Positions 874-3,800 of a DNA stretch of 64,000 nucleotides are shown here, one piece after another. The stretch's first letter is position 1; every line of letters starts with the position of its first letter. Where the stretch lies: assembly GCF_003334765.1 (NCBI RefSeq), contig NZ_QOWT01000002.1; one strand, written 5' to 3'. The translations under genes were made by a program, and so were the position numbers. Source of the DNA: Escherichia coli (GTDB taxonomy: Bacteria; Pseudomonadota; Gammaproteobacteria; Enterobacterales; Enterobacteriaceae). Under the pieces are notes generated by a model. The model was not told where the DNA came from, did no database searches, and saw only the letters and a program-made list of their open reading frames with translations.

Positions 874-3800
874 ATGAGCAAACAATCACAGCATGTATTA
901 ATTGCCCTGCCCCACCCGCTGCTTCACCTGGTCAGTTTAGGTTTAGTCTCGTTTATCTTTACCCTTTTCTCGCTTGAGCTTTCGCAGTTTGGCACCCAAC
1001 TCGCCCCACTGTGGTTCCCGACGTCCATCATGATGGTGGCGTTTTATCGCCATGCCGGGCGCATGTGGCCGGGAATTGCGCTGAGCTGCTCGCTGGGAAA
1101 TATCGCCGCATCCATCCTGCTTTTTTCCACCAGCTCGCTGAACATGACCTGGACGACCATCAATATTGTTGAAGCCGTGGTCGGGGCAGTGCTGCTACGT
1201 AAATTGCTGCCGTGGTATAACCCCTTGCAAAATCTGGCTGACTGGCTGCGTCTGGCATTCGGCAGCGCCATTGTTCCGCCTCTGCTAGGGGGTGTTCTGG
1301 TTGTCCTGCTGACGCCCGGAGACGATCCTCTCAGGGCATTTTTGATATGGGTACTGTCAGAATCCATCGGCGCTCTGGCACTGGTGCCGCTGGGATTGTT
1401 ATTTAAACCACACTATCTGCTGCGCCATCGCAACCCACGGTTGCTTTTTGAGTCGCTGCTCACGTTAGCCATCACACTGACGTTAAGCTGGCTTTCGATG
1501 CTGTATCTGCCGTGGCCTTTTACTTTCATTATTGTGCTGTTGATGTGGAGCGCCGTGCGCCTGCCACGAATGGAAGCCTTTTTGATCTTCCTTACCACGG
1601 TGATGATGGTGTCGCTGATGATGGCCGCGGATCCCTCCCTGCTTGCTACGCCGCGTACATACCTGATGAGCCATATGCCGTGGCTACCGTTTTTGCTGAT
1701 CCTGCTGCCCGCCAACATCATGACGATGGTGATGTATGCCTTTCGTGCGGAACGCAAACACATTTCCGAAAGCGAAACCCGTTTTCGGAACGCCATGGAA
1801 TATTCCGCTATCGGTATGGCGTTAGTGGGCACCGAGGGACAATGGCTGCAAACCAACAAAGCGCTCTGCCAGTTTCTCGGGTACAGTCAGGAAGAGCTGC
1901 GCGGACTCACCTTTCAGCAACTGACCTGGCCGGAGGATCTCAATAAAGATCTCCAACAGGTTGAAAAGCTGATAAGCGGTGAAATAAACACCTATTCAAT
2001 GGAAAAACGCTACTACAACCGCAATGGCGATGTTGTCTGGGCGTTGCTTGCCGTCTCACTGGTGCGCCACACGGATGGCACGCCGCTCTATTTTATCGCT
2101 CAGATTGAAGACATTAACGAGCTAAAACGCACCGAACAGGTGAATCAGCAACTGATGGAGCGCATCACGCTGGCTAACGAAGCGGGCGGGATTGGCATCT
2201 GGGAGTGGGAGTTGAAGCCGAATATTTTTAGCTGGGATAAGCGGATGTTCGAGCTGTATGAAATTCCTCCACATATCAAACCGAACTGGCAGGTGTGGTA
2301 CGAGTGCGTGCTGCCGGAAGATCGCCAGCATGCCGAAAAAGTGATTCGTGATTCGTTGCAATCACGCTCGCCCTTTAAACTGGAATTTCGCATTACCGTA
2401 AAAGACGGTATTCGCCATATCCGCGCCCTCGCCAACCGGGTACTGAATAAAGAAGGCGAAGTCGAACGCCTGCTCGGCATTAATATGGATATGACTGAGG
2501 TTAAACAGCTTAACGAGGCATTGTTTCAGGAAAAAGAGCGCCTGCACATAACGCTGGACTCCATCGGCGAAGCCGTGGTCTGTATTGATATGGCAATGAA
2601 AATTACCTTTATGAATCCAGTGGCGGAGAAGATGAGCGGCTGGACGCAGGAAGAAGCATTAGGTGTTCCGCTCCTGACGGTGTTGCATATTACCTTTGGC
2701 GACAATGGTCCCCTGATGGAGAACATTTACAGTGCCGACACCTCACGTTCCGCGATTGAACAAGATGTGGTGTTGCACTGCCGGAGCGGCGGCAGCTACG
2801 ACGTGCATTACAGTATTACGCCGTTAAGTACTCTGGACGGCAGCAATATTGGTTCGGTTCTGGTGATTCAGGACGTTACCGAATCACGCAAAATGCTGCG
2901 CCAGCTGAGCTACAGCGCCTCCCATGATGCACTGACGCATCTCGCCAATCGCGCCAGTTTTGAGAAGCAACTGCGTATGCTGCTGCAAACGGTAAACAGT
3001 ACACATCAGCGACATGCCCTGGTGTTTATCGATCTTGATCGCTTTAAAGCGGTGAATGACAGCGGCGGGCGACGCTTTGCTGCGCGAACTGGCGTCGTTG
3101 ATGCTGAGTATGCTGCGTTCCAGCGACGTGCTGGCGCGACTCGGTGGGGATGAATTTGGTCTGCTGCTACCAGACTGTAATGTTGAAAGCGCGCGTTTTA
3201 TCGCTACACGCATTATCAGTGCCGTGAATGACTATCACTTTATATGGGAAGGCCGTGTGCATCGGGTAGGTGCCAGTGCCGGGATTACCTTGATTGATGA
3301 CAACAATCATCAGGCGGCAGAAGTGATGTCGCAGGCTGATATCGCCTGTTATGCCTCCAAAAATGGTGGACGGGGCCGGGTGACGGTTTACGAACCACAG
3401 CAAGCTGCCGCACATAGCGAACGGGCGGCGATGTCGCTTGATGAACAGTGGCGGATGATTAAAGAGAATCAGTTGATGATGATGGCCCACGGTGTCGCTT
3501 CGCCGCGGATCCCGGAAGCGCGTAATTTGTGGCTGATTTCGCTTAAACTCTGGAGTTGCGAAGGCGAGATTATTGATGAACAAAAATTTCGTCGTAGCTT
3601 CAGCGATCCGGCACTTAGCCATGCTCTTGACCGACGGGTATTCCACGAATTTTTCCAGCTGGCCGCAAAAGCGGTTGCCAGTAAAGGCATAAGCATCGCC
3701 CTCCCCCTTTCCGTTGCCGGTTTGAGTAGCGCCACGCTGGTGAATGATCTGCTTGAGCAGCTGGAAAATAGCCCTCTACCACCACGGTTATTACATCTGA

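Follow-up and report, generated by a model that had tools for sequence, protein, structure and literature searches.

The dgcE locus

We analysed a 64,000-nucleotide stretch of Escherichia coli DNA (contig NZ_QOWT01000002.1 of assembly GCF_003334765.1), hereafter the window, in which the diguanylate cyclase gene dgcE (yegE) is split between two reading frames. This dgcE pseudogene occupies positions 874..4180 on the plus strand, is flanked by udk and alkA, and measures 3307 nt, against 3318 nt for the intact gene in strains 503025 and H3. Its identity as dgcE, proposed in a preliminary description made from the letters alone, is borne out by synteny (the udk-dgcE-alkA position), by annotation and by comparison with strain H3 (CP028732), the closest complete genome: the two alleles are the same at all 3307 aligned positions, and a gap of 11 nt is their sole difference. 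The domain order of MASE1, three PAS domains, GGDEF and degenerate EAL is also kept, as judged by Pfam, although it is now distributed over two open reading frames (ORFs). Because the indel relative to intact alleles is not a multiple of three, the gene is a frameshifted pseudogene in the sense of the NCBI Prokaryotic Genome Annotation Pipeline (PGAP).

The frames, coordinates and sizes given in the preliminary description also stand. The frame-1 ORF (874..3153, plus strand) encodes 759 amino acids, made up of native residues 1-730 and a 29-residue out-of-frame tail, and ends at a TGA stop; its C-terminal end is ...FKAVNDSGGRRFAARTGVVDAEYAAFQRRAGATRWG followed by the stop (in a longer rendering, ...IDLDRFKAVNDSGGRRFAARTGVVDAEYAAFQRRAGATRWG and the stop), and the tail codons (GGRRFAARTGVVDAEYAAFQRRAGATRWG) together with the stop codon cover 3064..3153 on the plus strand. 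This 759-residue product is already on record as GDS72468.1 and CAM3710862.1. The frame-2 ORF (3056..4180, plus strand) encodes 374 amino acids from the ATG at 3056, namely Met-Thr followed by native residues 734-1105 with the GGDEF motif present, and begins MTAAGDALLREL... (longer rendering, MTAAGDALLRELASLMLSMLRSSDVLARLGGDEFGLLL...); gene callers choose the ATG at 3101 instead, giving 359 residues. The codons of the GGDEF active-site motif (3143..3157, plus strand; residues 761-765 of the intact protein) can be read only in frame 2, and the frame-1 stop (3151-3153) sits within them. Consensus scans for promoters and terminators around dgcE gave results at or below shuffle expectation.

Anatomy of the deletion

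Alignment to intact dgcE shows that exactly 11 bases are missing, the intact sequence GACA-GCGCCGGGCAT-GCGGCGGGC-GAC having become GACA-GCGGCGGGC-GAC in the window. The preliminary description had placed such a loss at about 3061/3062, and alignment to reference dgcE agrees, with the refinement that, because the bases GCG are shared, any position from 3061/3062 to 3064/3065 is equally valid for the break. The lost segment can likewise be written as GCGCCGGGCAT or, equivalently, CCGGGCATGCG, and the junction (3062..3070, plus strand) consists of the lone surviving repeat copy, GCGGCGGGC. The junction-spanning sequence without the 11 nt is GACAGCGGCGGGCGAC, and its counterpart with them is GCGCCGGGCATGCGGCGGGC. 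At the protein level, A731, G732 and H733 are lost, which is the 'x-GH' segment of the NDxxGHxxGD motif that had been reported as absent, while the N-terminal fragment remains native through S730. Across the whole 64 kb the window differs from H3 by eight single-nucleotide polymorphisms (SNPs), with the 11-nt gap as the only indel.

In the intact gene the site is an imperfect direct repeat, GCGCCGGGC-AT-GCGGCGGGC, with units of 9 nt that match at 8 of 9 positions and a period of 11 nt. It codes for the S-A-G-H-A-A-G of the conserved motif, consists entirely of G and C at the deletion site, and contains exact blocks of only 3 nt (GCG) and 5 nt (CGGGC). What has been lost is thus a single period of the direct repeat, and the junction falls within bases common to both copies, as is characteristic of a repeat-mediated deletion.

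A repeat search seeded on 6 exact nucleotides misses this 11-nt-period repeat and was therefore replaced by a custom scan of the whole 3318-nt intact gene for pairs of 9-mers with at least 8 matches at offsets of 4-30. The scan found 10 short direct-repeat sites, three of which have offsets not divisible by three and would therefore shift the frame. The first, at gene position 2189, is the 11-nt deletion site. The second, at gene position 1467 (window 2341..2354, plus strand), is a perfect tandem of two GTGATTC units, intact in the window. The third, at gene position 2462, has an offset of 13 and yielded no deletion allele among the sequences seen. One GTGATTC unit (7 nt) has been lost in strain 2011C_4037, on the same dgcE allele as that of the window and H3 according to the alignment, and strain 10_253 has a 7-nt shortfall that matches the same site, as judged from match span only. 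Natural deletions are therefore found at two of the three predicted frame-shifting repeat sites of dgcE, which supports slipped-strand mispairing or microhomology-mediated deletion as their origin.

The repeat itself varies among lineages. In K-12 the second copy reads GCGGCGGGT, and the same 11-nt deletion there would yield an immediate TGA and a product of 732 residues. In the divergent lineages of Ecol_AZ147 and 1162invT2 the site reads GCGCCGGGCAC GCCGCTGGC, a much weaker repeat, which predicts that any hot spot at this position would be lineage-dependent.

Authenticity of the deletion

The closest complete genome is intact and otherwise identical in dgcE, the deletion allele is rare, and the site is repetitive with 100% G+C; each of these points speaks for the rival view that the gap is an assembly or sequencing artefact and the dgcE of the source strain truly whole. 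We surveyed complete E. coli genomes with a 601-nt query around the site, which matched dgcE in 5,410 of 5,426 genomes, all but two of them with an 11-nt gap against the window. The two are LR-45 (AP027532) and BS15R-A (CP063349), so that the deletion allele is present in at least 2 of about 5,400 complete genomes. A short junction query matched 3,966 complete genomes, among which LR-45 and BS15R-A were the only carriers, while about 1,460 lacked the 28-mer seed, and the carrier count is therefore a lower bound.

The same deletion is nevertheless found across independent projects and technologies. Six retrievable contigs, drawn from 13 samples, encode exactly this 759-residue product, and assemblies of Illumina reads are among them. 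Over 10,275 nt the window matches the Logan assembly of ERR271232, whose contig is common to 6 samples, with 100% identity, and GCA_965137835 carries the deletion with 5 mismatches to the window in 13 kb. In both complete chromosomes RefSeq annotates dgcE as 'frameshifted'; the junction of LR-45 is that of the window, and BS15R-A shows the other one, GCGCCGGGC. The deletion also occurs in an assembled human gut metagenome and in many further read sets, and it is stable in whole clonal groups, such as the LR-45 type with 17 contigs. Furthermore, the loss of 11 nt is atypical for a homopolymer or polishing error, and collapse of the repeat by an assembler is implausible because the 11-nt period lies far under the k-mer sizes in use. 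An artefact reproduced across projects, platforms and assemblers is very unlikely, and we consider it barely credible that the source strain has an intact gene. The concern about assembly error raised in the preliminary description is thereby answered as far as public data allow.

Recurrence and a probable mutational hot spot

We compiled 25 carriers (the window, the two complete genomes, draft genomes, read-derived assemblies and human gut metagenome contigs), in which the deletion lies on at least 15 dgcE nucleotide haplotypes with two junctions. Junction GCGGCGGGC is found in the window, the LR-45 clade, GCA_005395605, SRR13532089, SRR29834320 and SRR19599676, and junction GCGCCGGGC in BS15R-A, ERR4220707, ERZ919384 and others. 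The two junctions match breaks in one or the other of the microhomology blocks, GCG or CGGGC. For the window lineage, LR-45 and BS15R-A alike, the nearest complete-genome relatives are all intact.

Additional carriers were sought by predicting in silico the truncated products of other alleles and looking up these exact sequences in a public protein collection, as protein clusters at 90% identity are unsuited to finding truncated forms, all of which fall into one cluster of 24,248 members. The look-up matched the LR-45 product, the BS15R-A product, the junction-2 product of the H3 allele and the junction-1 product of the UTI89 allele. The exact look-up returned no match for K-12 or H1827/12 (both junctions each), for 503025 with junction 1 or for UTI89 with junction 2. 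The predicted truncated product of the phylogroup-B2 type (UTI89) was located in SRR19599676, whose dgcE is 4 nt from that of UTI89 and 90 nt from that of the window, with lineage-specific SNPs on either side of the deletion, 59 nt upstream and 18 nt downstream. The LR-45 allele differs from that of the window 80 nt downstream of the deletion, and other carriers differ 173-200 nt upstream.

These distances bear on the possibility that the deletion arose once and then spread between lineages through homologous recombination, with no hot spot involved. Recombination is frequent in E. coli, several carriers have a common H3-like protein allele, and the flanks of BS15R-A (junction 2) and GCA_005395605 (junction 1) are nearly identical, with 3 mismatches in 8.9 kb upstream, while BS15R-A and DRR103219, whose contig is identical to that of GCA_005395605, have 10 mismatches in 19.4 kb. 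However, a single origin has to account for two distinct junction sequences and for haplotypes that differ by SNPs very near the deletion, so that imported tracts would need to be implausibly short, and repeatedly so. It also sits poorly with the intact state of each carrier's nearest complete-genome relatives and with the second direct-repeat site of dgcE, which shows the same type of deletion. We therefore regard a single origin as improbable, and independent recurrence of the deletion, in at least four clearly separate events, as the better reading. Since imperfect direct repeats bracket the deletion and it recurs independently, the site is read as a recurrent slippage or mutational hot spot, not as the scene of a one-off event.

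Domains and predicted loss of function

In the intact H3 protein, Pfam places MASE1 at residues 19-294, three PAS regions at 303-672, GGDEF at 682-838 and EAL at 897-1088. The frame-1 product of the window retains the MASE1 membrane domain (928..1755, plus strand; residues 19-294; PF05231, E = 2.7e-36), the three PAS domains (1780..2889, plus strand; residues ~303-672; PAS, PAS_3, PAS_4 and PAS_9) and the N-terminal third of GGDEF, including DLDRFKAVND (2917..3063, plus strand; residues 682-730; model positions 1-53 of 161). The degenerate EAL domain (3551..4126, plus strand; residues 166-357 of the frame-2 ORF; PF00563, E = 2.7e-21) lies on the other product. The GGDEF model is thus split, with the N-terminal product matching positions 1-53 only (residues 682-734) and the frame-2 ORF positions 53-160 only. 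Pfam on both ORFs hence confirms the separation that had been described, in which one product keeps only the sensor and the remainder lacks it. As to the downstream fragment, the preliminary description was right that it has no sensor, but its account was incomplete, for the fragment also lacks the first third of GGDEF and, as judged by eye, a Shine-Dalgarno sequence.

The motif FKxVNDxxGHAAGD, which holds the deleted A-G-H, is also conserved in PA0861/RbdA (5xgb) and 5m3c, the two closest GGDEF proteins of solved structure with printed alignments. No single polypeptide of the window contains a complete GGDEF domain of ~160 residues with both FKxxNDxxGHxxGD and GG(D/E)EF, and neither product should be able to act as a cyclase. 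No AGGAGG-like Shine-Dalgarno sequence was seen in the 25 nt upstream of the ATG at 3056 or at 3101 when these were inspected by eye, with neither a motif search nor a calculation of pairing energy. The ATG at 3056 precedes the frame-1 stop by 97 nt, so there is no geometry for termination-reinitiation and translational coupling is not expected. A downstream fragment with no sensor, no first third of GGDEF and no Shine-Dalgarno sequence should be inert. As alkA is convergent downstream, no polar effect on neighbouring genes is expected.

Studies of K-12 provide the analogy for the effect of the allele. DgcE is described as the 'master' diguanylate cyclase for CsgD, curli and cellulose in K-12 (PMC6510439), where a GGAAF active-site mutant, a MASE1 deletion and a PAS3 deletion each behave as a dgcE null and strongly lower CsgD, curli and phosphoethanolamine cellulose (pEtN-cellulose) (PMC6510439). 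The same work ascribes an inhibitory role to the degenerate EAL domain and shows that DgcE is subject to MASE1-dependent proteolysis (PMC6510439). In a soil E. coli isolate, the natural dgcE frameshift 1456delC was shown by experiment to abolish CsgD and curli, and wild-type dgcE complements it (PMC6029578). By analogy with these mutants, the window allele is most likely null for DgcE signalling, and induction of CsgD, curli and cellulose would be reduced.

It could be argued that the split gene still functions, with a restart from the ATG at 3056 or 3101, the two fragments acting jointly, or ribosomal frameshifting supplying cyclic di-GMP (c-di-GMP). An in-frame ATG is present right at the break (3056), the frame beyond it runs uninterrupted through GGDEF and EAL, and pseudogenes of dgcQ, dgcN and dgcE in Shigella raise c-di-GMP (PMC11327459). 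The break lies inside GGDEF, however, leaving the first 52 model positions, DxD/FKxxND included, on the other polypeptide, and the A-G-H of the GH motif is gone from every frame. The MASE1 and PAS3 deletion variants of K-12 are null despite a complete GGDEF (PMC6510439). No Shine-Dalgarno sequence is evident before either ATG, and no slippery heptamer is evident in 3056-3075, the latter judged by eye with no motif search run. Residual function of this kind is, in our view, very improbable, and we retain loss of DgcE signalling as the expected effect of the allele.

Other candidate interpretations of the locus were considered and rejected. A programmed ribosomal frameshift is at odds with the uninterrupted gene of the nearest relative and of more than 99.9% of genomes, with the physical absence of 11 nt of conserved coding sequence, and with the lack of a slippery heptamer evident by eye in 3056-3075. 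A phase-variable contingency locus does not fit a site with two imperfect copies 2 nt apart when intact and one after the deletion; only the two-copy and one-copy states were seen, a three-copy allele not having been searched for. A functional degenerate diguanylate cyclase of the Shigella type is disfavoured by a lesion within GGDEF, a downstream ORF that starts at model position 53, and no Shine-Dalgarno sequence evident by eye.

Proposed mechanism

Taken together, we consider recurrent repeat-mediated 11-nt deletion inactivating dgcE to be the best explanation of the locus, with a probability of roughly 0.88. The anatomy and recurrence of the deletion suggest that the two repeat copies misalign, through replication slippage or microhomology-mediated deletion, and that one 11-nt unit is thereby removed. 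The resulting frameshift would end translation 29 codons further on. The cell could then make two products at most. One would be a membrane-anchored MASE1-PAS3 protein with only the first third of GGDEF, and the other a C-terminal piece, inefficiently initiated and devoid of the sensor, of the PAS dimerisation region and of the first third of GGDEF. Judging from the published mutants, the allele would behave as a dgcE null, with curli and cellulose down at low temperature or in stationary phase. As a single repeat copy is left after the deletion, the change would not be a reversible switch.

It should be noted that several points weigh against this explanation. The deletion in this isolate is read from its assembled sequence, and the effects on phenotype, protein and c-di-GMP are predictions. 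The other 12 diguanylate cyclases and the remaining curli pathway of the strain are located outside the window, and interrupted diguanylate cyclase genes of Shigella flexneri still raise c-di-GMP (PMC11327459). Finally, given the closely related flanks of BS15R-A and GCA_005395605, it is conceivable for this pair that a single deletion occurred and that its junction later underwent a G/C change.

Frequency of dgcE loss and the role of selection

To place the 11-nt allele in context, we examined 60 complete genomes picked at even steps along the similarity ranking, with lesions judged by the length of the match span and nonsense mutations not counted. Eight of them (~13%, a rough figure) have a dgcE with a frame-changing match length or a truncation: three O157:H7 genomes with one extra base, 10_253 with 7 nt fewer, three genomes with one base more or less, and one in which the gene is truncated after MASE1. 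On checking, two of the eight (MMC-J-0020 and O157:H7 G5295) are annotated 'frameshifted'. In G5295 the extra base is located at gene position 457, while the other two O157:H7 genomes were assigned by match length only. In an earlier sample of 24 genomes, 2011C_4037 and Ecol_AZ147 are annotated 'frameshifted'.

With the match one base too long in three O157:H7 genomes, the O157:H7 lineage as a whole may carry dgcE as a pseudogene.

These lesions raise the question of whether DgcE loss is favoured. PMC11327459, which cites Povolotsky and Hengge (2016), gives dgcE as a pseudogene in nine pathogenic E. coli strains, and yegE has been pseudogenised in host-adapted Salmonella lineages. We speculate that the recurrence might reflect positive selection for DgcE loss beyond mutation bias, through an advantage of less curli and cellulose in the gut or in laboratory storage. 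In favour of this are the share of the spread sample with frame-changing or truncating lesions, the pseudogenes just cited, and the occurrence of several carrier groups as clones found in more than one sample, for the most part in human faeces or gut metagenomes. Against it, the allele is rare (2 of ~5,400 complete genomes), and in the window lineage the deletion is very recent and the gene otherwise unchanged, as would also be the case for a transient mutation that is neutral or mildly deleterious. On balance, selection of this kind is possible but unlikely. It is more doubtful still that the GC-rich repeat is a built-in one-way 'off' hot spot, hit repeatedly and kept by selection in gut-associated E. 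coli. If this were true, convergent dgcE loss via the 11-nt site and its sister 7-nt site would be an adaptive route to curli- and cellulose-negative lifestyles.

Other elements in the window

Several non-coding RNA elements were noted elsewhere in the window. Three Sib antitoxin RNAs (Rfam RF00113) lie at 10075-10223, 10410-10552 and 10738-10880, each opposite an Ibs toxin gene. The second and third copies are identical over 143 nt in the window, and the second copy of H3 has five clustered differences (window 10487-10502), which account for five of the eight SNPs in the 64 kb. The identity of the two copies looks like gene conversion between them or an assembly collapse of the repeat.

An OrzO-P antitoxin RNA (Rfam, 101 bits) is found at 59643-59718 on the plus strand, between yehK and yehL. 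There is no toxin gene at this site in the RefSeq annotation of H3, and no obvious small hydrophobic ORF of at least 20 amino acids was seen on the opposite strand within 59480-59900. The expected non-coding elements CyaR small RNA (24240-24325), a naRNA4 element derived from repetitive extragenic palindromic (REP) sequence (32646-32716) and the thiamine pyrophosphate (TPP) riboswitch upstream of thiMD (40571-40667) are also present.

Comparison with known systems

The dgcE of K-12 (Pfiffer et al. 2019, PMC6510439) is the same gene at the same udk-dgcE-alkA locus, with the same architecture of MASE1, PAS3, GGDEF and degenerate EAL. The window differs from it at 55 nucleotide positions and lacks the 11 nt, and it cannot encode the 1105-residue enzyme. 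The pseudogenes of LR-45 and BS15R-A have the same 3307-nt length and the same 11-nt deletion; their backgrounds, however, differ from that of the window by 13 and 5 SNPs in the gene, respectively, with flanks that are 0.9-2.5% divergent.

The 1456delC allele (PMC6029578) likewise arose in nature and, through its frameshift, deprives DgcE of GGDEF function. It lacks one base in the PAS region, whereas the window has a repeat-mediated 11-nt deletion within GGDEF, the effect of which is a prediction. The dgcE, dgcQ and dgcN genes of Shigella flexneri (PMC11327459) similarly have an alternative start near the lesion and an open downstream frame with GGDEF. The Shigella lesions, however, precede an intact GGDEF, while the lesion in the window lies inside the domain and deletes conserved residues.

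As a mutational event, the deletion resembles the classic deletion hot spots at short direct repeats, explained by slipped-strand mispairing, such as those of lacI reportedly described by Farabaugh in 1978 and Albertini in 1982. The likeness consists in the loss of one repeat period, in alternative junctions within microhomology and in independent recurrence. The dgcE repeat differs in being imperfect: its copies agree at 8 of 9 positions, and the exact blocks measure 3 and 5 nt.

A literature search for an '11-bp' dgcE or yegE deletion found no paper describing the allele, which is already flagged in public annotation and is a known kind of event in an often-lost gene; no new system or mechanism is revealed. 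The contribution made here is modest, namely the recognition of a probable slippage hot spot with two junction types together with a sister 7-nt site. The source strain is predicted to be defective in inducing CsgD, curli and pEtN-cellulose through DgcE, which bears on biofilm formation, environmental persistence and interaction with the host. More broadly, the locus offers a clean natural case, within a conserved catalytic motif, of a probable hot spot for deletion between short direct repeats, and it adds to the evidence that dgcE ranks among the c-di-GMP genes that E. coli loses most often.

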